DNA from: a virus
UHGV virus genome: UHGV-1359874
Direction: 5' to 3' (one strand)
Length of the DNA: 64,000 nt
In this document: one piece after another, positions 27,511 through 52,966 of the stretch
Position numbering within the stretch: position 1 is the first letter of the stretch
Layout: the number at the start of each line of letters is the position of its first letter
Translations under genes and position numbers: made by a program
Notes under the pieces: generated by a model
Databases searched by the model: none
What the model saw: the letters and a program-made list of their open reading frames with translations, nothing else
Told to the model about the DNA's origin: nothing

Positions 27511-27822
27511 ATGAAATGTTTGATTTATGCCTATGATGCTATGTATGGTGGACTTCATGGTATGTATGACTGGACTATTGAAGATGTTGAACCGTCCGAA
27601 GCTGAGGATATTGGCTATCAAATGTCTGTTGATATAATTGAATCCTATTCTTATACTCACGATATGCCAGAAGATTGTGATTCTGAAGAATATGATGAAT
27701 GGCTAGATTCTATGGTTTCATATGAGATTTATCCTATTAAGGAAGAGTATCAGAATCAGACTTTGGAAATTGAAGAAAATTCGGATATTGAAGAAATCAT
27801 TAACCGCTATTGTTGTCATTAA
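27511..27822 (+). CDS. hypothetical acidic protein
   Basis: ORF track. Confidence 0.45.
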   Translation: MKCLIYAYDAMYGGLHGMYDWTIEDVEPSEAEDIGYQMSVDIIESYSYTHDMPEDCDSEEYDEWLDSMVSYEIYPIKEEYQNQTLEIEENSDIEEIINRYCCH

Positions 27823-28107
27823 TTGACTTTTAATAAAATATATAGTATAATATATATGTAAATAAGAAATGACAATGTTGAACTTGTGAAGTTCAGTTTT
27901 CTATTGGCCAGTAGAGAACAGCGCAGGGACTGAACAAGAGATGGCCGCTCAAGTGGTGAGTCCTTAAAAACTGCTAAAGGATAGCATTCTAGATAGTAAG
28001 GAGCCGGAAGTCATTTTTTCGGAGTAATTAAATTACAATGTTATCGGGATAAGACATTGTAAGTACTGGCAAGTCTAAATCTATAAGTCTAGATAAATTT
28101 AGATACT

Positions 28108-28211
28108 ACCAGAGAAGCGGTAGTTTAAGAGGAAAAAACGCTAGCTGGGTAATTAGCAGCAGAATTACGGGTTCGAGGTCCCGTCCGCTTCGCCATTTAA
28201 ATCAATAGGAG
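28108..28211 (+). ncRNA. tRNA-like element ending in G-CCA (7-bp acceptor gaagcgg/ccgcttc, D-arm gttt/aaac, T-arm-like hairpin; anticodon and T loops 8 nt)
   Basis: folded by hand; sits at 3' end of 350-nt ORF-free, promoter-driven region 27860-28211. Confidence 0.4.
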
Positions 28212-28218
28212 GTAAATT

Positions 28219-28806
28219 ATGTATCTCAATATTGATCGTACAAATATGTATTATCTTTTTCATAATAATGAATGTATATATTTGGGTGATAAAGAAGATT
28301 TAATTGAATATCTTGTTGCTCATTGGCGGCGTTCTTATGTACTTCTTGTAGATAAACTTCATAGTGGAGTTCTTGAAGGTGCATATAAATGGTATAATGT
28401 TGTCTTTGAGAATTATTCTATGGAAATGGGAGATTCTTCAAAATACGTTATTATAGATGGTTTGCATAGAATTATTAATATTGATAACTATTATGAACAG
28501 ACATTTCGGGTAGCAAGAGAAGAAAAGGACAAAGATAATTCATTTACATATCCTGAAAATCATAATAAATATGGCATATATAGGTGTACACCTGTGCCTA
28601 ATACCAGGAAATATCGCGGCGGTCCATCCCAAAAGGTTCGTAAGACTGCGCGAATTTATAAACTGTATGCAGACCCTGAACAGAAAGAATATAATCGGGG
28701 GTCATGCCGCGGTATTCCTAGTTGGTGGGATGATTTTTCTTTCCGTCGTCCTCAAAAAAGCTGGAAGGAACAAAGTAAACGCTCTCATCAATGGAAAGAG
28801 AAGTGA
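28219..28806 (+). CDS. hypothetical protein, basic C-terminus
   Basis: ORF track; RBS aataggaggt. Confidence 0.5.
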   Translation: MYLNIDRTNMYYLFHNNECIYLGDKEDLIEYLVAHWRRSYVLLVDKLHSGVLEGAYKWYNVVFENYSMEMGDSSKYVIIDGLHRIINIDNYYEQTFRVAREEKDKDNSFTYPENHNKYGIYRCTPVPNTRKYRGGPSQKVRKTARIYKLYADPEQKEYNRGSCRGIPSWWDDFSFRRPQKSWKEQSKRSHQWKEK

Positions 28807-29982: not shown

Positions 29983-30079
29983 GACCTGCGCATTGATTTT
30001 TGACAATTTAATAATTTTATGATATAATAATTATACAAAAAATAAAGGTAATAAATTTATTATATCAGGAGGATGCTTC

Positions 30080-30991
30080 ATGGAAGAATTTATTGACTTG
30101 GAAGGCTTGGAAGATGAGAGCTTGGCTGAACTGGACAATAGAACAGAGGATGAAGCATCCTCTTTTTCTGTCTCTAGTTTGAAGCAATATTTGAAGAATA
30201 TTGGTTCGATCAATCTATTGACACCTGATGAGGAGATGCGGCTTGCGATCCAAGTCAAAGCAGGAGATAGCGCCGCCCGCGATAAGTTGGTAGAAGCAAA
30301 TCTACGTCTTGTAGTTTCTATTGCAAAGAAATATCAAAATATTGGAGTTCCGCTTCTCGATTTGATTCAAGAGGGTAATTTAGGTTTGATGCGAGCAGCA
30401 GATAAATTTGAACCTGATAAAGGTTATAAATTTTCTACTTATGCTACATATTGGATTAGGCAGTTTATTGGTAGAGCTATTGCTGACCAGGGTAGAACTA
30501 TTCGTGTTCCTGTTCACATGATTGATTCTATCAATAGTATGAAAAAGAAAGAGAATGAATTTGTTGTTGAGCATGGTAGAAAGCCTACTGATAAAGAACT
30601 TGCGGCAGTGCTAGGCGTAACCGCCAAAGAGGTTAAGGCTATGAAGAATTATTCCCAGAAGTCTTCTAGTCTTGATGTTCAGATTGGTGATGATGAGGAT
30701 ACATCTCTTGGTTCTTTGATCGAGGACGATATGTTTGACACGCCGGAAGCAGCATATAATAAAGTTGAAATTGTCAATACACTTAAATCTGTATTGAGTA
30801 CTCTTGATGAAAGAGAAGCGACTATTATTAAGATGCGGTTTGGCCTTGATGGTAAAGGGCCTAGAACTCTTGGTGAAGTAGGCGAAATTTTAAATCTTTC
30901 TAAGGAACGTATTAGACAGCTTGAAGCTAAGGCTTTGCGTAAACTGCGCCATCCTAGTAGAGCAAAAAAACTTCGTGACTTTATTGCTTAA
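30080..30991 (+). CDS. RNA polymerase sigma-70 family factor (regions 2, 3, 4)
   Basis: region 2 [35 protein letters not shown], region 4 [27 protein letters not shown]. Confidence 0.85.
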
Positions 30992-31008
30992 TTGATTTAT
31001 TAAAAAAT

Positions 31009-31037
31009 AAATGTTATAATATATACATAAGAAAGAG
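31009..31037 (+). promoter_or_regulatory. conserved extended -10 promoter element (TnTGTTATAATATATACATAAGAAAGAG); one of more than 20 copies
   Basis: near-identical copies at ~24895, 26815, 27835, 31389, 32310, 35035, 35835, 36875, 37355, 46360, 49482, 54025, 54235, 60480, 62808, 63243 (+) and ~13100, 15170, 20910, 21625 (-). Confidence 0.65.
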
Positions 31038-31079: not shown

Positions 31080-31156
31080 TCCCGTCTAGCTCAACTGGTT
31101 AGAGCATCCGACTTATAATCGGAAGGTTCGGTGTTCAAGTCACCGGGCGGGAACCA
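31080..31156 (+). tRNA. tRNA-Ile (anticodon UAU), CCA encoded
   Basis: hand-folded cloverleaf: acceptor tcccgtc/ggcggga, D gctc/gagc, loop cttataa, T cggtg-ttcaagt-caccg. Confidence 0.7.
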
Positions 31157-31264
31157 TAACTCTTAACATGGATTTTGCTGGTTTAAACTACTCCCGGCAC
31201 TTAGGTGATATGGAGCTTAATGGAAAAGAGTATAATAAGAAGCAAAGTAAAACCAGCTTTTAAT

Positions 31265-31351
31265 GCGGAGATAGTGTAACTGGTCAACACGCATCCCTTA
31301 CAAGGATGAGACATTTGCATTGTCAGGGTTCGAGTCCCTGTCCCCGCACCA
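31265..31351 (+). tRNA. class-II (long variable arm) tRNA; anticodon reads UAC as parsed; isotype uncertain
   Basis: acceptor gcggaga/tccccgc (1 mismatch), AC stem catcc/ggatg, loop cttacaa, 15-17-nt variable arm, T caggg-ttcgagt-ccctg, CCA. Confidence 0.5.
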
Positions 31352-31661
31352 CTAATTATAATATTTACTTTTTGACAATTTAAAAAATAAATGTTATAAT
31401 ATATACATAAGAAAGAGAAAGGAGCTTCTAAATGTATTACGAAAGTTATGCTTGTGAAATTCAGTCTGATGAAATTGCTAGTGTTTGGGCAGATTTTTAT
31501 AATGATATGGAGGCTTTTTTCAATGAAAATGAACAAAAGTGACAGAAAGAAATGCGACGACGAATTGCAAGAATATCTTCAGTTTAGACGTTGCGGATTT
31601 CAGGTAAAACCTAAAAAGGGACGAGGTTCTTATACTCGTAAAATTAAGCATAAATAAATAT

Positions 31662-31736
31662 GGCCCCATCTTCTAATGGTTAGGAAGCCGGCCTTTCACG
31701 CCGGCAATGCTGGTTCGAGTCCTGCTGGGGTCACCA
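31662..31736 (+). tRNA. tRNA-Glu (UUC)
   Basis: acceptor ggcccca/tggggtc, AC ccggc-ctttcac-gccgg, T-loop ttcgagt, CCA. Confidence 0.7.
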
Positions 31737-32066
31737 TGTACATTGTACTCTGAATTTAATCCGAGGCTGACAACGATTGAATTTAGAATGGTTTGTTTAG
31801 GAAACTACCATTTTAATAAGTATCCTTCTTGTTTCACTTGAATGTCCCTAACAAGTAAAAGAATGGCGATGTTCACCAAACCCAAGGTTAGAGGGTTGAC
31901 TTTCTGGACGAGGTCTTTACTCTCCATGGTTTTTAAGAAGAAAACCTAAAAAATAGAAAAGATAAGTTTGTAAGGCAAGGGTTAGATCGAAACTCTTCCA
32001 GCGGGTCTGGGTTTGTAGCTTTACCCCACTTCCCGCCAAAAGCTACAATTTCATATTGCGCTGGTG

Positions 32067-32140
32067 GAGCAATGGTAGCTCGCCGCTTTCATAGGGCGGA
32101 GACGAAGTTCAAATCTTTCCGGGCGCAACCATTGGGACAT
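32067..32140 (+). tRNA. tRNA-Met/Ile2 type (CAU)
   Basis: D gagc/gctc, AC ccgct-ttcatag-ggcgg; acceptor and T stems each carry one mismatch. Confidence 0.5.
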
Positions 32141-33029
32141 TTTGTCTCACCTTTTAATGAGTTTTAGTGAGCCTTCTCGGGGATATGGCTCCTGGTTGAA
32201 AAATTGCTTCTACCTGAACCCCGCTAACCTTTTTTAACGGAGACTAAAGAATATAGTTCAAATGTTTTATAACAGAACGCCGTTTATATACAAAGTCTTT
32301 TGATTTCTTAAAAAATATATGATATAATATATATGTAATCAAGAGATAAGCAACTGATATTAGCCGCCCTCCGCTGAATAAGCCTGGCAGTTGCGATTTC
32401 GACTAAGAGCTATGTTGAACCTTGAAAATTTCTGTAACTCAGTGAAGAACGCACACCAGCGTGCTGAGAATCCGACCCTGCTTACGGGTTTCCAAGAGTT
32501 TCTTATTTAGAAGGATACTTCTAAATGGGATAGAGTTAAATGCGGTGACGTATTTAAACTCCATCAAACGGTGGACTTGGAAGGGTGGATGTGCAGATAT
32601 TATCGCAATCAAAGGCAGTTGTCTTATCGCGGTCATAATAGAAAGTTCGTTTAACAGACGGGCCGAATCCTAGTTAGGTAGGAGCTGGTTACTCTTACAA
32701 TCCTAGGAAATACCAACAAGATCGTTTGCTGTGATGTTAAAGTAATTTAACTATAAGATAAGGTCAGACGTACAAGTAGCTCAAGGCATTTGAAGATGGT
32801 TTCATACTAAATTAGCTGATAATGAATTATTATAAGAATAATTTTCTGAATGGTGAGTGAAAGTTGCTCGTAGTCAGTCGAGTACAGGATTTGACGAGTT
32901 ATCGTTGGAATAAGAAGTTAGGGGTCATGACCCGAAGCTCAGACTTATTTCCCTGTTAGCCTAATATGATTGAAGATAATTATTTGTAGGGTGAAGGCCC
33001 ACAGAGTTTTTTGGTTCAGTTGAATATAT

Positions 33030-33341
33030 GCCGCGGTGGCGAAATTGGTAAACGCAATGGACTTTTGACTTAGCAAACGTTAAAAGAGAGTGCCTAGAAG
33101 GAAACTTTTAGAGTAGAAACTGGCTAAAACGGCGAATGGCTAAGAGAACGCCGTGCTAAATTTCAAGAGTAATCTTGAATAAATGTGTAGAGAGCATACA
33201 CCAGTTGCCTAAGTTCTTATGAATATGGTAAAGACGTGCTCCAGACTACAACGTATCTTTTGATACGGCCATGGTGACATGGAGTAGTAAGAAAATCCAT
33301 CGGCTTCGGCCTTGGGGGTTCGACTCCCCTCTGCGGCACCA
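33030..33341 (+). tRNA. tRNA-Leu (UAA) interrupted by a 227-nt group-I-like intron (33065-33291) between anticodon-loop positions 34 and 35
   Basis: 5' half: acceptor gccgcgg, D-arm, AC stem atgga + ctt. 3' half: aaaa + tccat, class-II variable hairpin ggcttcggcc, T ggggg-ttcgact-cccct, acceptor ctgcggc, A-CCA. Intron has R-like element CAGACTACAACG, P8-like hairpin ccatg-gtga-catgg, ends in G. Confidence 0.7.
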
Positions 33342-33559
33342 CCAAATTAAAATAATCAAGGAAATTAAAGCCATTTTGTAAAGGAACGTACAAAGGTCGA
33401 GTCGTAAGAAAAACAAAAGTAGTCCGTAAGGAATGGTAAACTTGATATGACCAAGTAAGTTATTGCCAGTTGATTATTTTAATTTTTTACTTATCTATCC
33501 AAGAGTAGAATAAGCTGAATCTGCGGCGAGGCGGATGTAAACAATACCTCGTTAAATAT

Positions 33560-33635
33560 TGCCTTGTAGTCCAGTTGGTAGAACGGCGGACTGTTAATCC
33601 GTATGTCGTGGGTTCGAGTCCCACCGGGGCAGCCA
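33560..33635 (+). tRNA. tRNA-Asn (GUU)
   Basis: acceptor tgccttg/cggggca, AC loop ctgttaa, T gtggg-ttcgagt-cccac, CCA. Confidence 0.7.
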
Positions 33636-33664
33636 TAAATCTTTTTAAATTAGGAGGTGAAAAA

Positions 33665-33901
33665 TTGAAGATTCGTAATCTAAAGGACATTAATTCTTTT
33701 AAAAATGCTATTGCGCAGTGTCATGGAGAAGTCTGGCTTGAATCTGTATATGGTGATAAGTATAATTTAAAGTCTGAACTTTCTCAGTATGTTGCTATGG
33801 CGGATTTGCTAAGAGATAAGAAAGAGAATTTAGAATTGTTTGCTAGACTTCCTGAAGATCAAGCTATTCTAATGGATTTTCTTAGAACTCTTGAAGATTA
33901 A
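33665..33901 (+). CDS. small hypothetical protein (~78 aa, TTG start); listed ORF 33575..33901 overlaps tRNA-Asn so its 5' part is not coding
   Basis: RBS aggaggtg 7 nt before TTG at ~33665. Confidence 0.4.
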   Translation: MKIRNLKDINSFKNAIAQCHGEVWLESVYGDKYNLKSELSQYVAMADLLRDKKENLELFARLPEDQAILMDFLRTLED

Positions 33902-33913
33902 TTTCTTCAATAT

Positions 33914-34052
33914 GCGTTTATAGCTCAGTTGGTAGAGCACCGCACTTGTTAGGATAGTTTAAAGAAAAATCTCTTTGAGGATATAAGTTCAAATCTTATT
34001 TCTAACTCCATTAATGCGATGGTCGGGAGTTCGAGTCTCCCTAAGCGCACCA
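33914..34052 (+). tRNA. tRNA (probably Lys, UUU) carrying a 63-nt tRNA-like minihelix insert (33948-34010) in the anticodon loop
   Basis: outer: acceptor gcgttta/taagcgc, canonical D-arm tagctcagttggtagagc, AC stem ccgca/tgcga, T gggag-ttcgagt-ctccc, A-CCA. Removing 33948-34010 gives loop cttttaa. Insert: stem gttagga/ttctaac (7 bp, perfect), T-arm ataag-ttcaaat-cttat, T-CCA. Confidence 0.55.
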
Positions 34053-34246
34053 TTAAAATCTTATATAGACACATACAGCAATGAATATTTTAATAGCTTT
34101 TAAAAAATATTCACTTTTTACTGTGATTTTTATATTGATGGTTTGTTTTTATTCTTTCATTTTGTTTGACCCCTCCTTTCATTACAAATTTGTTTGAGTG
34201 TCTAGTTTAAAAAATAAAAAAGTAAGTATAATATAAAAGAAAAAAT

Positions 34247-34331
34247 GAGCGAGTGTTGGAATAGGAATACAACTCTGCCTTAGAAGCAGAGGTCGAAAGG
34301 CATAAGGGTTCGAGTCCCTTCTCGTTCACCA
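34247..34331 (+). tRNA. tRNA-Leu (UAG)
   Basis: acceptor gagcgag/ctcgttc, AC tctgc-cttagaa-gcaga, long variable arm, T aaggg-ttcgagt-ccctt, CCA. Confidence 0.7.
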
Positions 34332-34386
34332 ACTGTGAAAATCATGCGTGTTTATTTCACTAAACACATTGTAATAGCCAAATTAT

Positions 34387-34477
34387 CTTGAGGTACCCAA
34401 GTGGTTGAAGGGGGCGCATTGCTAATGCGCTAGTAGGGTAACACCTAGCGAGAGTTCAAATCTCTCCCTCAAGGCCA
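34387..34477 (+). tRNA. tRNA-Ser (GCU)
   Basis: acceptor cttgagg/cctcaag perfect, AC gcgca-ttgctaa-tgcgc, long variable arm, T gagag-ttcaaat-ctctc, G-CCA. Confidence 0.7.
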
Positions 34478-34506
34478 TAACTTTTATCAAAAGGAGAATT
34501 ACGCCA

Positions 34507-34647
34507 ATGTTTACTATTGAACAGTCTATTGCTGCTAAGAAGAATCGTCTGAATAAATTGATTGGACGCGGCGATCGTAATGTTAAGTGTCCTGGAGTTA
34601 TTCGTAAGTTGCGGCGAGAAATTCGCAATCTTGAAACTCAGCGTTAA
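34507..34647 (+). CDS. small basic protein (~46 aa) inside tRNA island
   Basis: ATG with RBS aaaaggagaa; under ORF-track size cut-off. Confidence 0.35.
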   Translation: MFTIEQSIAAKKNRLNKLIGRGDRNVKCPGVIRKLRREIRNLETQR

Positions 34648-34660
34648 TCGCTGAGAATAT

Positions 34661-34755
34661 GCGTCCGTACCGAAATGGTTATAACGGCCTAGCCTTGAAA
34701 GCTTGTGTGTCAGCTTGTATCTGACATGGGGGTCCGAATCCCTCCGGGCGCGCCA
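34661..34755 (+). tRNA. tRNA-Ser (UGA)
   Basis: acceptor gcgtccg/cgggcgc, loop cttgaaa, long variable hairpin gtcag/ctgac, unusual T-loop tccgaat. Confidence 0.55.
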
Positions 34756-34780
34756 TTTAGACCTTTACAGCAATTATTTT

Positions 34781-34833
34781 TTCTAAGAAGAATTGGGTTC
34801 CATGTGTCGGTGATTCGAGTTCATCCTAGAAGG
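34781..34833 (+). ncRNA. free-standing mini tRNA-like element (terminal stem ttctaag/cctagaa 6/7 bp + T-arm ggtga-ttcgagt-tcatc; no D or anticodon arm)
   Basis: hand fold; preceded by recurrent leader motif acagcaatt. Confidence 0.35.
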
Positions 34834-34839
34834 TAAAAC

Positions 34840-34920
34840 TTCTTGTAGCTCAGTTGGTAGAGCAATGATTATTTAGAACTTATGGGTCTAGTTAAATATG
34901 GGCGGGACGCTGCCCATTAT
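34840..34920 (+). pseudogene. truncated tRNA (5' acceptor cttcttg + canonical D-arm tagctcagttggtagagc; no matching 3' half)
   Basis: D-arm identical to that of 33914 tRNA; no complementary acceptor strand before tRNA-Pro. Confidence 0.4.
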
Positions 34921-34996
34921 CCGGGTGTAGCGCAGTTGATAGCGCACAGGTTTTGGGTACCTGGGGTCGTGAGTTTAAGTCTCACCACTCGGACCA
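34921..34996 (+). tRNA. tRNA-Pro (UGG)
   Basis: acceptor ccgggtg/cactcgg, AC caggt-tttgggt-acctg, T gtgag-tttaagt-ctcac, A-CCA. Confidence 0.7.
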
Positions 34997-35102
34997 TCTA
35001 GGTGAATCCACATTTCACATATTTTATTGACAAAATTAAAAAAATTTGTTATAATATATATAGAAAAAACAAAGAAAGTAATTTTGTTAATGGAGAAAAG
35101 TT

Positions 35103-35288
35103 ATGTATATTTGTCCAACTTGTAACAAAAGTTTTGATACTGAGGAAAGAATCCAAAAGCATTTCTTAAAGTGTTGGAAAGAAAAAAATCCTTATTATCA
35201 GTCTAAGCCAGCTCCTAGAAGTGAAGATGTTGAGACTGTTGAAATTAATGATGATGTAGCAAACTTTTTTAATTCTTTAATGCGGTGA
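35103..35288 (+). CDS. small C2H2-like zinc-finger protein
   Basis: CPTC...HFLKC pattern; extended -10 motif at ~35035. Confidence 0.45.
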   Translation: MYICPTCNKSFDTEERIQKHFLKCWKEKNPYYQSKPAPRSEDVETVEINDDVANFFNSLMR

Positions 35289-35294
35289 TGTAAA

Positions 35295-35648
35295 ATGCAG
35301 GAAGTAAAAATTAAAACACATTTAATAATTACCTCAATTCATAATGAATTTAATATGAACTGGTGTGGTAAGATTATTAATACCAAACCTAAGTTTGAAA
35401 ATAATAAACCTGTATTTGTCATTATTGGAAGTCTTGGACGAATGGAAGTAAATACTGTTGACATGAAATATCTTGAGGAATGTGCTAAGAAACTCACATA
35501 TCCAAGAGGTAGACAAGCAGTTACCACTGATAAAGCAAGAATTTATATTGTTGAAGAAGATGGTAAAGAAACTTTGATGGGTGTTTTAACTCATAATAAT
35601 GTTAAGCAGTATGCGCCAATGTTTGATCCAGTCGGATACAGGAATTAA
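35295..35648 (+). CDS. hypothetical protein (117 aa)
   Basis: ORF track. Confidence 0.5.
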   Translation: MQEVKIKTHLIITSIHNEFNMNWCGKIINTKPKFENNKPVFVIIGSLGRMEVNTVDMKYLEECAKKLTYPRGRQAVTTDKARIYIVEEDGKETLMGVLTHNNVKQYAPMFDPVGYRN

Positions 35649-35657
35649 TCTTTTTAT

Positions 35658-35803
35658 AGGGTAATAGCCAAGTGGTAAGGCATGGGACTTTCAAGATTTA
35701 GTATAAAGAAGTATTTCTATTATGAATAGAAGGTATTGGTTCAAATCCAATAATCTTGACTAGACTCCCAGATGCGTTGGTTCAAATCCAACTTACCCTG
35801 CCA
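35658..35803 (+). tRNA. tRNA (Gln UUG or Glu UUC after excision) carrying a ~71-nt tRNA-like minihelix insert (35692-35762) in the anticodon loop
   Basis: outer: acceptor agggtaa/ttaccct perfect, D gcc/ggc, AC stem tggga/tccca, T gttgg-ttcaaat-ccaac, G-CCA. Insert: stem caagatt/aatcttg (7 bp perfect), tagtataaagaag..., T-arm attgg-ttcaaat-ccaat, A-CUA; homologous to insert at 33948. Confidence 0.55.
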
Positions 35804-35984
35804 TATAAAAAATAAACAAAAAAAATGATTTTTATTAAAATTTTTGATATAATATATATATAAGATAAAGAAAGACACTCACAGCAATTTTTTTATGGTT
35901 TACAAAAAATTCTGCAAAAATTTTTTAAGAAGGTTCGATTCCTTTAAATAATGTGTCTTGGTTATTTAATATATGCGCGAGTGT

Positions 35985-36070
35985 CGGAATGGTAGACGAG
36001 GTGGTCTCAAAAACCACTGCGATAATTCGCATAAGGGTTCGAGTCCCTTCTTGCGCACCAGCGGGAACCC
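35985..36070 (+). tRNA. tRNA-Leu (CAA)
   Basis: acceptor gcgcgag/cttgcgc, AC gtggt-ctcaaaa-accac, long variable arm tgcgataattcgcat, T aaggg-ttcgagt-ccctt, A-CCA. Confidence 0.7.
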
Positions 36071-36130
36071 GCAACAATTAAAAACATTATTTTGGAAGTC
36101 ATTTTAACCTTCCAAAAAAATCGTAAATAT

Positions 36131-36205
36131 GCCGAGTTAGTTTAATGGGAAAACAATCCTCGTTTGCGGATTATGATAAGTTCGATTCTTATCACACGGC
36201 CATGT
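36131..36205 (+). tRNA. irregular tRNA or tRNA-like (possible UUU anticodon in an 8-nt loop; one acceptor mismatch)
   Basis: D gttt/aaac, AC aatcc-tcgtttgc-ggatt, T ataag-ttcgatt-cttat, no encoded CCA. Confidence 0.35.
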
Positions 36206-36301
36206 ATGATTCGGATAGTATAATGGAATTACAATCGGTTGTAGACCGGAAGATACCAGTTCGATTCTGGTGAAGAATCTTTAAATTGATTTTTTTAAAA
36301 G

Positions 36302-36347
<46 letters not shown>

Positions 36348-36405
36348 AGACAAACAGCAATATAATATTTTTAACTGGCTATTGTTAAAAAGTCTCTTGT
36401 AACTC

Positions 36406-36480
36406 GCTAGTGTGGCGCAACGGTGGCGCAGTCGATTTGTAATCGAAGGGCTGGAGGTTCAATCCCTCTCACTAGCTCCA
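36406..36480 (+). tRNA. tRNA-Thr (UGU)
   Basis: acceptor gctagtg/cactagc perfect, D gcgc/gcgc, loop tttgtaa, T ggagg-ttcaatc-cctct, T-CCA. Confidence 0.7.
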
Positions 36481-37255: not shown

Positions 37256-37439
37256 AATGACTGAGTTTGTTATTGGTGTTTGGGTTGGTGTAGCCTGTTA
37301 TGGGGTTTGGCGAATTATTTATGAAATTTTTTTTCATTGATTTTTAAAAAAATTTTTGTTATAATATATAATATAAAAACAAGAGATAAGAATCAATAAA
37401 AGGTTATGAAAATAACCATCTCAGTAAAGGAGAAAATAT

Positions 37440-46961: not shown

Positions 46962-47719
46962 TGATGATTAATGATAAAGAGATTATGAATACTCTCCAAA
47001 ATTATTATAATGTTGCAGCTTGTGATTATAATGTATTCGGGGTTTTCCTATATGGTAGCCAGAACTATGGCTTAAGTACTCAATATTCTGATGTTGATGC
47101 TGTTGCTATTGTATTTCCTACTTATAGAAATCTTATTTTTAAAGAAAAGGATATTTATAAAGAGGTTACTGGCGGCAATGGTAATTTTCATTATCAAGAT
47201 GTGAGAGATTTCTTTAATCAGCTTCGCAAAGGCAATCCTAATGCGATTGAAATTCTTACTACTGATTATTATATTATTAATCCTGATTATACTTATTATT
47301 GGAATAGTATAAGAAATAATAAGAATGTTATTTGGCAGGCTAATCCTAGTGCAACTTTTAAAGCTCTTGAAGGAATGTATAATTCTTATATGAAGAAATT
47401 TGATTCTGATAATAAACCTAAAAATTTTATTGGAGCTTGCCGCATTCTTATGTTAGCTGACCAGTTTGTTGATTTTATTCAGTGGGGAAATGAAGAACCT
47501 TCTTTTATGCTGGAAGTCTGTGATAGCTGGGAACTAATTGGTTATAAACTTGGTAAATTGGAAATTTTAAATAGTACCATTCAAATTAAGAAAGAAAAGG
47601 CTAAGTCTCTCTTTCATGAATGTTTAGATAATTACGAAAATCCTGAAGCAATCAATATTCTTAGTCTTCAGGATGGCATTATGATTCGGTATCTAAAGGA
47701 GGTAGTTGATAATGCTTAA
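46961..47719 (+). CDS. predicted nucleotidyltransferase (GS-x9-SDVD motif)
   Basis: FGVFLYGSQNYGLSTQYSDVDAVAIVFPT. Confidence 0.55.
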   Translation: MMINDKEIMNTLQNYYNVAACDYNVFGVFLYGSQNYGLSTQYSDVDAVAIVFPTYRNLIFKEKDIYKEVTGGNGNFHYQDVRDFFNQLRKGNPNAIEILTTDYYIINPDYTYYWNSIRNNKNVIWQANPSATFKALEGMYNSYMKKFDSDNKPKNFIGACRILMLADQFVDFIQWGNEEPSFMLEVCDSWELIGYKLGKLEILNSTIQIKKEKAKSLFHECLDNYENPEAINILSLQDGIMIRYLKEVVDNA

Positions 47720-48953
47720 TTCTAATGGAACTCGCGAGCTAGTGTACGTCGTGAAAATTGATGAAATTAAACCAATCGCAGGACGAGATCGGGTAGAGTG
47801 CGCAGTTGTAGGCGGATGGACTGTTATGGTTCGCAAAAACGAGCTGAAGGTGGGAGATTACGCCGTTTATTTTGAGATTGATTCTAAGTTGCCTGAGTGC
47901 GCACCTTTTGAATTTCTCGCGGCGAAGCATTATAAGATTAAGACTCAGCGCTATAAGACTCCTGATGGGCCTTTTTATTCTCAGGGTCTAGTTATGTCTT
48001 TTAAGGATTTCGTTGATGCCTCTGGCCGTGTTCCCACATGGCTAGCTGAAATCAATGCTCGTATCGCAAGTGGCGAAGATGTAACTCATACTTTCTTGAC
48101 TGAAGTTCTAGGTGTTACCTATGCAGATCCTGCAGATAATACCCGTAAAGCTAAGTCTGTAGATAAATATACTAAAATGACTCAGCGTCACCCCGAATTG
48201 TTCAAGAAGCCTTGGGCTAAGTGGATGATGCGGCGTTCCTGGGGCCGCAAGGTAATGTTTGTTTTCTTTGGCAAGAAAAAGGACAAGAAGAATGGCTGGC
48301 CGGTTGGCAAGTTCCCTGGTGTAGCAAAAACCGATCAGGAACGAGTTGAGAATATGACCTGGGTCCTGAATGATAAAACCCCGTTTATTGTTACCCAGAA
48401 ATGCGATGGTTCTAGCGGAACTTATATTCTTGAAAAGAAGCGTTTTGGATATGAATTTTATGTATGTAGCCGCAATGTCCGCATGGTTAATGAAAATCAG
48501 GATTGCTTCTATTCTACTAACTATTATTGGGAAGTTGCAAAGAAGTATGATATTGAAAACAAAATGAAAGATTGGTTGAAGAAAAATCCAAAAGCAACTT
48601 TTGTTTGTTGGCAGGGTGAAATCTGTGGCCCCAATATCCAGAAGAATCCTCAGCATCTTTCTCATACCCATTTCTTCTGTTTCCATTGGACTGATAGTAT
48701 TAATGGTCGCCTTGATATTCGTGAAGCCGCAAAGCTTTGGAAGAATTATCAGATGACTGTTGTTCCTATTGTTGGAACTGTTGTATTTCCTGATACTCTA
48801 GAAGAACTAAAAGAAGCTGCTGATGGAACTTATGATTCTTCTGTTTGTGAGGGTAATACTAACTGTAAACGAGAAGGTCTAGTTTACTATAAAACTACTG
48901 AACCTACTTTTAGCTTCAAGAATGTTAGTCGAGAATATCTTATGAATCATTAA
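47706..48953 (+). CDS. ATP-dependent polynucleotide (probably RNA) ligase
   Basis: motif I VTQKCDGSS (KxDG), motif IV-like EGLVYYK; adjacent kinase and phosphoesterase genes imply RNA repair. Confidence 0.6.
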   Translation: MIMLNSNGTRELVYVVKIDEIKPIAGRDRVECAVVGGWTVMVRKNELKVGDYAVYFEIDSKLPECAPFEFLAAKHYKIKTQRYKTPDGPFYSQGLVMSFKDFVDASGRVPTWLAEINARIASGEDVTHTFLTEVLGVTYADPADNTRKAKSVDKYTKMTQRHPELFKKPWAKWMMRRSWGRKVMFVFFGKKKDKKNGWPVGKFPGVAKTDQERVENMTWVLNDKTPFIVTQKCDGSSGTYILEKKRFGYEFYVCSRNVRMVNENQDCFYSTNYYWEVAKKYDIENKMKDWLKKNPKATFVCWQGEICGPNIQKNPQHLSHTHFFCFHWTDSINGRLDIREAAKLWKNYQMTVVPIVGTVVFPDTLEELKEAADGTYDSSVCEGNTNCKREGLVYYKTTEPTFSFKNVSREYLMNH

Positions 48954-49889: not shown

Positions 49890-50405
49890 ATGAAAATGAA
49901 TAATCGACTGATTCTCATGATGGGTGTTCCTGGATGCGGCAAATCTTATTTTGCAGCTAAGCTCGCTAAGTGGATCCCTAATACGGAGATTATTTCCCGG
50001 GATGAGATTCGTTTCAAGATGCTTCAGTCTAGCGATGAATATTTTAAGCATGAGAAACAGGTTTTTCAGGCTTTTATTCTTGCTATTAATGAAAGTCTTG
50101 AGGCTGGTCATAACGTAATTGTAGACGCGACCCATATCAATCGTCAGTCTCGGTCCAAGGTTCTCCGTGAAATTAACCATGATTATTATAATCGCTGTGA
50201 TATTTTCTATATGCGTACTCCTATTGGTAGATGTATTGCTCAGAATAATCTGCGTGAAGGTCGAGCAAAAGTCCCTGAGAAGGTAGTTAAGGATTTCTGG
50301 AATCGTAAAAAGACTCCTATCCTTGATGAAGGTTTTAATAATATTTATTATGTTTTTGATTGTGAGCGGATCTCGCTCGCGCAGGGAAAGGATGAGGCAA
50401 TTTGA
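49890..50405 (+). CDS. P-loop polynucleotide kinase (Pnk-like)
   Basis: Walker A MMGVPGCGKSYF; IISRDEIRFKM; VIVDATHINRQSR. Confidence 0.7.
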   Translation: MKMNNRLILMMGVPGCGKSYFAAKLAKWIPNTEIISRDEIRFKMLQSSDEYFKHEKQVFQAFILAINESLEAGHNVIVDATHINRQSRSKVLREINHDYYNRCDIFYMRTPIGRCIAQNNLREGRAKVPEKVVKDFWNRKKTPILDEGFNNIYYVFDCERISLAQGKDEAI

Positions 50406-50950
50406 GTAATGTATTCATAACTTCCGATCTCCATCTAGGTCATGACAAGGAATTCATTTGGCGCCCGCGTGGATTCAATTCTGTTGAAGAGATGAATGAA
50501 GCTATTGTTGCTCGTTGGAACGCAGTAGTGCCGCATGAAGGTTTGGTTTATGTTCTCGGAGATATTATGCTCGGCAATAATGAAGCTGGAATCAAGCTAT
50601 TTAACCAGCTAAATGGGGAAAAGATTATTATACTTGGAAATCATGATAGTAAAAACCGCATTGAACTTTATCAAGAGTGCGGTTATGAAACTGATTGGGC
50701 AAAAGTGATTAAGTATAATGGTTATACTTTTTATCTTTCTCATTATCCTACTCTTTGTTCTAATCTAGATAATGCAAAGAAGGGTTTGAAAGGTCGAGTA
50801 ATTAATCTATGCGGTCATTCCCATGTAATTAATCCTTATGCGGATGAGGATAAAGGTTTGATCTATCATGTTGAAGTAGATGCTCATGACTGTTATCCCA
50901 TAAATCTTGATAATGTAATTCTTGATATTCGTAACACTTATAATCTGTAA
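50402..50950 (+). CDS. calcineurin-like metallophosphoesterase (candidate RNA-end 2',3'-phosphatase)
   Basis: ITSDLHLGHD, GDIMLGNNE, ILGNHDS, GHSH motifs; 4-nt overlap with kinase gene. Confidence 0.7.
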   Translation: MSNVFITSDLHLGHDKEFIWRPRGFNSVEEMNEAIVARWNAVVPHEGLVYVLGDIMLGNNEAGIKLFNQLNGEKIIILGNHDSKNRIELYQECGYETDWAKVIKYNGYTFYLSHYPTLCSNLDNAKKGLKGRVINLCGHSHVINPYADEDKGLIYHVEVDAHDCYPINLDNVILDIRNTYNL

Positions 50951-51718: not shown

Positions 51719-52966
51719 ATGAAATTTTATGATACTTGTAGTCTATTGAATTTGCAGGAGAAAGCTTTTGAACCTTTTAAAGAATTTGCCATTAGCACTA
51801 TTACACTTCAAGAGCTAGAAAACATTAAAACTTCTGCACATAAGGATGCGGAAACCAAGTATAAAGCCCGCAAATTGACAAGATTGTTGGCTGAAAATGA
51901 AAAAACATATACTGTATTTCCTTATGATGCTAACGTTAAATATGCTCAACAGTTACTTGGATTTGATGATAGTAATGATACCCGTATTATTTCAACAGTA
52001 AAAGAAGCAACTAGTAATGGCAAGCATGATTTACTGTTTGTAACTGACGATATTTGCTGCTATCACTTAGCTAAAATCGCGGGAATTCAGGTGAAATTGG
52101 GAAGTAGCGAGCCTGAAGAGGATTATACTGGGTTTAAAATTGTGCGGCTAAGTGAAGATAAGCTTGCTGATTTTTATACTAACTATTTTAGTGAAGCCTA
52201 TATTGATTTTATGATGGTTCCTAATGAATATCTTATTATTCAGGATGCAACAACTGGTGAATATATTGACCAGTATAAACTTAATAAAGAGTATCAATTT
52301 GAAGAAGTTCCTTACCCAGTATTCAACAGTGAAATGTTCGGTATGATTAAGCCAAAAGATGTATTCCAGCGATGTGCAATGGATTCAATTAAGTCTAATC
52401 AGGTTACTATGCTTGGAGGGCCTGCGGGTTCAGGTAAAACCGCATTAGCTCTAGCTTATATGTTTGAACAACTCGAAAAAGGTAAGTTTGATAAGTTAGT
52501 TCTTTTTTGTAATCCTATCGGAGCTAAAAACTGCGCGAAGCTTGGCTATTATCCCGGTACTGTCTTAGATAAGGTATTGTCAACTCAGGCAGGCCACGTT
52601 TTGTCAAGCAAGTTAGGTAGCGAAACAGAAGTAGAAAGACTTATTGCGGAAAATAAGTTAGAAATTATTCCCGCAGTTGACGCTCGTGGTTATGAAGTAC
52701 CTTCTCATTGTGGTTGTTATGTTCTTGAGGCTCAGAACCTTACCAGTGATACACTTCGTCTATTGCTGCAACGTGTCGCCGCAGATACAAAAGTCATTGT
52801 AGATGGTGATAGAGTTGAGCAACTTGATATGGAAATTTATAATGAAGATAATGGCATGAAAAAAATGTCAAAAGTATTCAAAGGTACTTCTGTTTACGGT
52901 CAGATTGATCTACAAAATATTTACCGCTCTGAAATTGCTAACATTGCGGAACAGATGAAATATTAA
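51719..52966 (+). CDS. phoH: PIN-domain + PhoH-like ATPase
   Basis: Walker A GGPAGSGKTALALAY; N-terminal PIN-like MKFYDTCSLLNL...FVTDD. Confidence 0.85.
   Translation: MKFYDTCSLLNLQEKAFEPFKEFAISTITLQELENIKTSAHKDAETKYKARKLTRLLAENEKTYTVFPYDANVKYAQQLLGFDDSNDTRIISTVKEATSNGKHDLLFVTDDICCYHLAKIAGIQVKLGSSEPEEDYTGFKIVRLSEDKLADFYTNYFSEAYIDFMMVPNEYLIIQDATTGEYIDQYKLNKEYQFEEVPYPVFNSEMFGMIKPKDVFQRCAMDSIKSNQVTMLGGPAGSGKTALALAYMFEQLEKGKFDKLVLFCNPIGAKNCAKLGYYPGTVLDKVLSTQAGHVLSSKLGSETEVERLIAENKLEIIPAVDARGYEVPSHCGCYVLEAQNLTSDTLRLLLQRVAADTKVIVDGDRVEQLDMEIYNEDNGMKKMSKVFKGTSVYGQIDLQNIYRSEIANIAEQMKY

Follow-up and report, generated by a model that had tools for sequence, protein, structure and literature searches.

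What does a cloverleaf shaped like a transfer RNA (tRNA) and ending in CCA do between a promoter and a protein-coding gene, if it is no decoder? The question is raised by positions 27,823 to 28,806 of a 64,000-nucleotide (nt) stretch of the virus genome UHGV-1359874, the entire stretch being called here the window. The unit is harboured by a large, AT-rich gut phage of roughly 130 kb. Within it a promoter, a leader free of open reading frames (ORFs), a tRNA-like cloverleaf, a ribosome-binding site (RBS) and the gene of a 195-aa protein stand in series without a terminator, and thus they are predicted to form one transcription unit. The cloverleaf is derived from a tRNA and has kept its helices while its anticodon arm drifted. 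The reading that we favour, and to which we give a probability of about one in two, is that a decayed tRNA has been kept as a punctuation signal for ribonuclease P (RNase P) and 3' processing.

A tRNA-derived cloverleaf that is no decoder

The features of the unit are listed below.

27823-27851, plus strand: sigma-70-type promoter with the -35 box TTGACT at 27823-27828, a 17-nt spacer and the -10 box TATAAT at 27846-27851, agreeing with the consensus at 11 of 12 positions
27858-28113, plus strand: ORF-free leader of 256 nt, start predicted, with hairpins at 27880-27896, 27896-27919, 28003-28021, 28033-28062 and 28066-28112
28114-28195, plus strand: tRNA-derived, non-decoding cloverleaf of 82 nt, called "tRNA-???" with the anticodon gggt by ARAGORN
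28114-28120 and 28185-28191, plus strand: acceptor stem of 7 bp, GAAGCGG/CCGCTTC
28123-28139, plus strand: D arm, GTTT-AAGAGGAAA-AAAC, with GG in the loop and preceded by TA
28141-28162, plus strand: anticodon-like arm with a bulged 6-bp stem, CT(A)GCTG/CAGCAG, and a 9-nt loop
28167-28184, plus strand: T arm with the 5-bp stem ACGGG/CCCGT and the 8-nt loop TTCGAGGT
28192 and 28193-28195, plus strand: discriminator G and CCA, respectively
28196-28218, plus strand: spacer TTTAAATCAATAGGAGGTAAATT of 23 nt, with the RBS AGGAGG at 28207-28212, starting 12 nt past the CCA
28219-28806, plus strand: gene of the 195-aa protein, phrog_12793-like, with a basic C-terminal half, apparently co-transcribed with the cloverleaf

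A terminator-like site was not found between the cloverleaf and the gene. Related loci were retrieved via the downstream 195-aa protein and the sigma factor of the window, and they lie on contigs of ~128-130 kb from gut and other metagenomes. Clade A comprises L003/L004, L022-24, L025 and L058-61 (DNA identity 93-98%), L017 and L021 represent clades B and C, in which the downstream protein is ~50% identical, and L062 and L064-69 carry a second subfamily of the protein (~30% identical).

To R1, a covariance model made from five clade-A variants of the cloverleaf, genuine tRNAs of the related loci (Ala, Lys, Gly, Asn and others) were detectable with 30-47 bits and E-values of 1e-6 to 1e-10, and ARAGORN calls the cloverleaf itself; the element is thus tRNA-derived. 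The model scored 41.7 bits on the syntenic tRNA-Gly of L065, the T arm of which is nearly identical to that of the window cloverleaf, and 33 and 26 bits on a tRNA-like module (module 1, see below) of L017 and L021, respectively. The ancestor of the cloverleaf was a real tRNA gene, plausibly the tRNA-Gly(UCC) that stands at the same place in related phages. A first-pass annotation of this DNA had placed a tRNA-like fold with CCA at 28108-28211; cloverleaf and CCA proved to be there, in the narrower span 28114-28195 called by ARAGORN.

Of the features of a canonical tRNA, the window copy has the 7-bp acceptor, U8, the D arm with G18-G19 and the discriminator followed by CCA, and it lacks the 5-bp/7-nt anticodon arm (U33, purine 37), a conserved anticodon and the 7-nt T-psi-C loop, its T loop being of 8 nt. 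The Rfam tRNA model (RF00005, gathering score 29 bits) did not match the window copy at threshold, nor at E<=10. The L025 ortholog scored 49.7 bits with that model, having an 11-nt "anticodon loop" and the canonical T loop TTCGAAT. When the window region, L021 and L065 were compared with Rfam at E<=10, nothing except tRNA was found. ARAGORN reads the anticodon arm as a 5-bp stem with an 8-nt loop, an alternative to the 6-bp/9-nt register listed above; we prefer the latter, because a compensatory change in relatives fits it and a deletion in L025 breaks the stem proposed by ARAGORN. Hence, of the two 8-nt loops described in the first-pass annotation, the one in the T arm stands, whereas the anticodon loop has 8 nt in one register only and relatives favour 9 nt. 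As the loops are non-canonical and the putative anticodon differs between near-identical genomes, the cloverleaf is no decoder. For annotators this means that an ARAGORN call of "tRNA-???" with a four-base anticodon, or of "tRNA-Thr(ggt)" as obtained for L025, denotes neither a suppressor nor a Thr tRNA.

Variation within clade A preserves the structure. All 22 pairs of the cloverleaf are kept in 7/7 distinct sequences, and by manual reading of the alignment (A5) the approximately 13 variable columns are located in loops or leave the pairing intact. One change only is compensatory, from C-G to U-A in the outer pair of the anticodon stem (columns 323/344), and a C to U substitution in the T stem keeps a G.U pair. 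The D-loop length and one base of the variable loop vary as well, and the bulged A of the anticodon arm is absent in L025. In the anticodon loop, two bases are GG or TA, so that GGGT of the window stands against GTAT of L058-61. The T loop is TTCGAGGT in the window, TTCGAGAC in L003 and the canonical TTCGAAT in L025 and L058-61, the 8-nt length being shared by the window copy, L003 and L022. Furthermore, among genomes ~95-98% identical the discriminator is G or A and the 3' end CCA or TCA (TCA in L022). Selection appears to act on the cloverleaf.

In clades B and C, the first of two tRNA-like modules lies about 220-230 nt from the promoter, close to the 256 nt of the window. Of module 1, the D arm (TAGTTTAAG..AAAAC) and the T arm are kept; the loop of its anticodon hairpin is 5 nt long in L021 and 17 nt in L017, where the acceptor stem has decayed and CCA is missing, and ARAGORN calls the L021 copy tRNA-Gly(ccc). 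Module 2 is a second cloverleaf that has NCCA, a perfect 7-bp acceptor (GTAGCTCAA...GAGC) and D and T arms enlarged by big insertions, and it directly adjoins the junction of CCATTTA, RBS and gene that is common to clades A, B and C, and in all three clades the gene-adjacent module keeps the acceptor stem and NCCA. Homologs thus back the predicted fold throughout the close clade, with all pairs kept, and in part in the distant ones.

In the second protein subfamily, a canonical and rapidly covarying tRNA-Gly(UCC) is situated 65-73 nt upstream of the homologous gene in L062, L065, L067, L068 and L069; an inserted GIY-YIG homing endonuclease separates the tRNA from the gene in L064 and L066. In every case, a tRNA or something tRNA-like stands before the homologs of the 195-aa gene in other phages. 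What is conserved is that these genes immediately follow a tRNA or a module of tRNA shape that has an acceptor and NCCA.

As to the gene product, the AlphaFold model reached a predicted local distance difference test (pLDDT) score of 51, and searches of Pfam, NCBIfam, PADLOC and PDB returned nothing informative. A profile of the protein yielded one additional locus in metagenome_contigs (L025) and nothing new in genome_contigs or viral_contigs. The T arm, used as an exact pattern in IMG/VR, gave chance matches alone, in GC-rich coding DNA; among 25 loci matched by the conserved 5' motif, the one genuine locus was the relative already known; and the tRNA-like element had no blastn match among the INPHARED phages.

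The promoter and the 256-nt leader

The near-consensus promoter predicted in the first-pass annotation is present at 27823-27851, but it is not of the extended -10 type, since AG and not TG precedes the -10 box; the copies in L017 and L021 carry the TG. The promoter is kept upstream of the leader in clades A, B and C, and its class is used about 30 times within the window, standing also before the ROOL RNA and tRNAs. Transcription would start at about 27858. The predicted 5' end of the leader, AAATAAGAAATG, resembles a purine-rich promoter-proximal motif, AGAGATAAG(AAAT), that is found after other promoters of non-coding RNAs (ncRNAs) and tRNAs. As such a 5' motif also follows other promoters of the window, it is not specific to this RNA.

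AGAGATAAG itself occurs in the window at 31034, 32342, 33812 and 37382 (4 copies against 0.8 expected; 0/100 shuffles have as many), and a promoter-like -10 box precedes every copy. Three of them (31034, 32342 and 37382) are located ~13-16 nt past near-consensus promoters, found at 30992, at 32300 (the one upstream of ROOL) and at 37337, and the copy at 33812 lies ~46 nt past a weaker promoter match at 33738 (10/12). The layout of promoter, leader and tRNA recurs too, as another related phage (L026, 5656-5895) shows the same arrangement of a promoter, a ~130-nt leader and a canonical tRNA-Trp(cca), followed by a second promoter and a sigma-factor gene.

The leader is indeed free of ORFs, no plus-strand ORF of at least 20 aa being found inside 27827-28218; a mini-ORF of 6 codons at 27869 is frame-shifted in L025 and L058. 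Both hairpins named in the first-pass annotation, TGAACTT-GTG-AAGTTCA (27880-27896) and GGCCA...TGGCC, are present in the sequence. The fold of the whole leader barely beats that of shuffled sequence (z = -1.8; 10/200 shuffles were as good), and the leaders of L017 and L021 have z-scores of -0.1 and -0.5. The segment 28002-28132 is unchanged across 6-8 close relatives of clade A. Between the leader of clade A and those of clades B and C, homology was undetectable past the first ~19 nt, covariation was not found in the leader, and the window holds no leader paralogs that we could find. A conserved leader structure is not demonstrable, and the proposal of an independent structured regulatory leader finds no support in view of the missing cross-clade homology, the missing covariation and the three z-scores. 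The leader may still be a structured or functional RNA.

A different non-coding element, of ~155 nt and conserved, lies directly upstream of tRNA-Gly(UCC) in the L062-like phages (L065 2690-2853; L066 1852-2018; L067 2690-2854; L068 956-1115; L062 1-149). A 14-bp stem, GTAGGTATTGCT / AGCAATACCTAC, in which one G-C pair is compensated to A-U, closes the element, and a 40-nt core, TTGCTAACAAGGCAAACCCCAGATAAGTCCGAGGTTACTAG, is invariant; the conservation of the element exceeds that of the adjoining tRNA, and it has no match in Rfam. We considered it as a homolog of the 256-nt leader and rejected it, an nhmmer profile giving no match.

A proposed processing signal and the alternatives

RNase P reads the stack of acceptor and T stem, the elbow and RCCA, and the anticodon arm is dispensable. 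The determinants of the processing enzymes are retained in the unit, namely the 7-bp acceptor on a 5-bp T stem, an elbow of D-loop GG and T-loop TTCGA, and a 3' NCCA. As expected of a punctuation element, this stack, the elbow and NCCA are kept, the anticodon arm is free to vary and the module is located at the junction with a gene. We therefore read the decayed tRNA as a processing signal on the strength of the retained RNase P determinants, the structure-preserving evolution, the synteny and the drift of the anticodon arm. Cleavage by RNase P at G28114 would free the leader, a second cut behind the discriminator or the CCA, made by a 3' activity, would free the 82-nt tRNA-like RNA, and the downstream messenger RNA (mRNA) would begin with a 5' end that is short and defined. 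Either of the freed RNAs, leader or tRNA-like, might in addition play a role in fitness. Among the three readings offered in the first-pass annotation (a tRNA-like or Y RNA-like regulatory RNA, or a tRNA), that of a tRNA, or tRNA-like RNA, with a long processed leader fits best.

With respect to known systems, the unit is a modest variant of the co-transcription of tRNAs with genes. In the thrU-tyrU-glyT-thrT-tufB operon of E. coli and in the tRNA cluster of phage T4, tRNAs are co-transcribed with ORFs or stable RNAs. As in such tRNA-mRNA operons, a tRNA(-like) element stands upstream of an ORF behind one promoter with no terminator between them, and related phages hold a genuine tRNA-Gly at this position. 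In the operons RNase P and 3' processing split the tRNA from the mRNA, a step that is proposed for the present unit; unlike them, the "tRNA" here cannot decode and has its own 256-nt leader. The second parallel is mascRNA/MEN-beta (MALAT1, NEAT1; RF01684), where a longer ncRNA carries at its 3' end a tRNA-like cloverleaf whose anticodon arm is abnormal and which serves solely as an RNase P / RNase Z signal and receives CCA. Unlike mascRNA, which is eukaryotic and nuclear, the present cloverleaf precedes a protein-coding mRNA, and its cleavage is only predicted; the Rfam mascRNA model scored 14 bits (E=5.4) on the L025 ortholog. If the processing signal is real, the phage keeps a dead tRNA purely for cutting RNA, which would be the counterpart of the MALAT1/mascRNA logic in a bacterial virus, and tRNA genes of phage tRNA islands could be repurposed rather than lost.

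Phage tRNA islands have been described in which canonical tRNAs are accompanied by ROOL/GOLLD RNAs nearby (PMC12286853). With canonical phage tRNAs the present cloverleaf shares the neighbourhood, the promoter class, the encoded CCA and the tRNA ancestry; it differs from them by failing the Rfam tRNA model and in its loop sizes and the lack of anticodon conservation.

Several points weigh against the cloverleaf as a processing signal. The 8-nt T loop could impair formation of the elbow, and the processing model gives the 256-nt leader no function. Clade A is merely 2-7% diverged and provides one compensatory event, so the comparative support is thin; moreover, the low divergence reaches into the upstream gene, and recombination mosaicism could therefore mimic constraint. 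Module 2 of the distant clades is tRNA-like by manual reading and minimum-free-energy folding alone, and no covariance model detects it. Finally, a tRNA beside a gene in a tRNA island may reflect neighbourhood and not functional coupling.

Unlikely, in our estimate, is that the cloverleaf is a drifting tRNA pseudogene (e.g. a former tRNA-Gly) next to a functionless spacer, neither of them selected. The non-canonical T and anticodon loops would suit such decay, as would module 1 of L017 with its broken acceptor and without CCA, the non-homologous leaders of the clades and the folding of the L017 and L021 leaders, no better than shuffled. Moreover, the tRNA-like segment evolves faster than the adjacent leader, with 8 differences from L058 in its 82 nt against 0-1 in 130 nt of leader. 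Against mere drift, the helices stayed intact in all seven distinct sequences despite variable loops, discriminator and CCA, all clades keep a strong promoter of the ROOL/tRNA class, and the gene-adjacent module always retains acceptor and NCCA. Furthermore, ~400 nt of non-coding DNA is kept in a dense genome, across clades in which the flanking protein is only ~50% identical.

We regard as unlikely a more elaborate version of the processing signal, in which the cloverleaf would be a dedicated non-decoding excision cassette and one of several tRNA-like RNA-processing devices of this lineage, including the anticodon-splitting inserts described below. RNase P and a 3' enzyme would then cut the cloverleaf out, liberating a 256-nt ncRNA and maturing the mRNA. 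The inserts of the tRNA-Lys(UUU) and tRNA-Gln(UUG) genes would likewise have to be cut out by tRNA-processing enzymes, after which the halves would be joined again, perhaps by the RNA ligase and kinase of the phage.

Still less probable is a stand-alone tRNA mimic that, once released from the transcript, acts as decoy or sponge of a tRNA-binding factor, for instance a modification enzyme or a defence nuclease with which the host attacks tRNAs. A decoy shaped by an arms race might combine, as this element does, an intact tRNA body and a hypervariable anticodon arm, and the RNA-repair set and tRNA array of the phage point to a conflict over tRNA integrity. This evidence is purely circumstantial, the loop variation amounts to two or three events only, and a mimic leaves both the leader and the tight gene junction unexplained.

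Improbable is a control of the 195-aa gene in cis by the leader, alone or together with the cloverleaf, through the sensing of a signal or a switch between structures. The leader contains a 13-nt direct repeat, AAATGACAATGTT / AAATTACAATGTT, at 27867-27879 and 28030-28042, the copies of which could compete for one partner at 28054-28062, and the invariance of 28002-28132 in close relatives would agree with such a switch. On the other hand, L017 and L021 conserve neither the repeat nor the leader sequence, no riboswitch or leader of Rfam matched at E<=10, and a terminator or RBS-sequestering helix was looked for and not found.

We give very little credence to a decoding tRNA with an expanded anticodon loop, e.g. 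a +1 frameshift suppressor reading ACCC via GGGU. ARAGORN assigns the four-base anticodon gggt, one fold gives CU-GGGU-AA as in suppressors with 8-nt loops (sufJ-type) and contains the Thr anticodon GGU, and the L025 ortholog is called tRNA-Thr(ggt). This reading fails because the "anticodon" is not conserved, being GTAT in L058-61. The discriminator is not conserved either, and the favoured register has a 9-nt loop. Unlike sufJ-type suppressors, which are otherwise canonical tRNAs with a conserved anticodon, the present element has a variable anticodon loop and an aberrant 8-nt T loop, and the window copy is missed by the Rfam tRNA model.

Equally hard to credit is an RNA like transfer-messenger RNA (tmRNA), or one that, in the manner of Y RNA or YrlA, partners a Ro-like protein. 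A tRNA-like module with T-arm and D-arm features is a hallmark of YrlA/bacterial Y RNAs (RF02553), and the window encodes a DUF2828/DUF7788 protein (37440-39639) of a putatively TROVE/vWA-like (Ro) family. However, Rfam gave no match at E<=10 in 27700-28350, and the acceptor end is open and normal, whereas the permuted YrlA module is closed there. A terminal Ro-binding stem is missing, as is a neighbouring Ro gene (rsr); the DUF2828 gene lies 9 kb away with its Ro link unconfirmed by PDB sequence search or literature. Neither ARAGORN nor Rfam finds at this site a tmRNA, which would have a tRNA-Ala-like domain split round a tag frame and pseudoknots. The Y RNA-like reading of the first-pass annotation is accordingly disfavoured.

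Other features of the tRNA island and the window

The window encodes gyrase A and B, an NAD ligase and an RpoD-like sigma factor (30080-30991), and the unit is situated ~1.9 kb upstream of the sigma-factor gene. The sigma factor is full-length RpoD-like, with regions 1.2, 2, 3 and 4 and without region 1.1, and it has 52-55% identity to RpoD of Bacilli and Clostridia. A perfect promoter (TTGACA-17-TGnTATAAT) lies at 30000, upstream of its gene. The tRNA array extends over 31080-36480 and the ROOL RNA over 32414-33017. Several features of this island (the anticodon inserts, a group-I-like intron and a possible YrlA) seem more unusual than the cloverleaf unit.

Two tRNA genes are interrupted within the anticodon by tRNA-like inserts of 63-71 nt. 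A tRNA-Lys(UUU)-like gene (33914-34052) is split after C32 U33 U34 by a 63-nt insert (33948-34010) that is tRNA-like, lacks an anticodon arm, ends in T-CCA and scores 37 bits with the Rfam tRNA model; its exact removal in silico leaves a canonical tRNA-Lys(ttt) according to ARAGORN. The same case is found in L004 (12307-12445), the site is occupied in L022 (11511-11662) by another tRNA-like insert, of 76 nt, and the tRNA-Lys gene of L017 is uninterrupted. The tRNA-Gln(UUG) gene (35658-35803; also L004 14830-14975) is split in the anticodon by an insert at 35692-35762, where ARAGORN calls an AT-rich "tRNA-His(atg)" of 69 nt inside the anticodon loop of the outer tRNA, and removal of 35692-35762 in silico restores tRNA-Gln(ttg). 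Together with the RNA ligase and kinase encoded by the phage, this organisation suggests excision by tRNA-processing enzymes and subsequent re-ligation. A description of such anticodon-splitting tRNA-like inserts was not found in the full-text literature. A family link between the nested inserts and the cloverleaf was considered and is unsupported, R1 not having detected the inserts.

Just 3' of ROOL, a tRNA-Leu(UAA)-like gene (33030-33341) has a 225-nt insertion in the anticodon loop, which matches the Rfam model Intron_gpI with 26.2 bits over the full model (E=7.6e-5 local), below the gathering score. The tRNA-Leu(taa) of L022 is uninterrupted, and relatives hold further tRNA genes with insertions of 450-830 nt. 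Between tRNA-Ser and tRNA-Pro, a sub-threshold YrlA match (34801-34868; 30.5 bits where the gathering score is 69, E=6e-4 with 2.9 kb searched) covers the permuted module of T arm, hairpin and D arm, and it is the only YrlA-like signal of the window.

The DUF2828 and DUF7788 protein (37440-39639) apparently consists of two ORFs (37440-37883 and 38527-39639), the halves being separated by a GIY-YIG/NUMOD3 homing-endonuclease ORF (37867-38520); a PDB sequence search with the DUF2828 protein gave no match. Further downstream, the window encodes an RNA ligase with a PHA02142 OB domain and RNA_ligase (47706-48953), a kinase like polynucleotide kinase (PNK; 49890-50405, AAA_33 / Pnkp-like) and a phosphoesterase (50402-50950, Metallophos_2), and near this set of RNA-repair type a PIN-PhoH protein (51719-52966). 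Inside the tRNA island of clade B, a small ORF of L017 (9121-9264) matches Pfam ArfA (alternative ribosome-rescue factor A).

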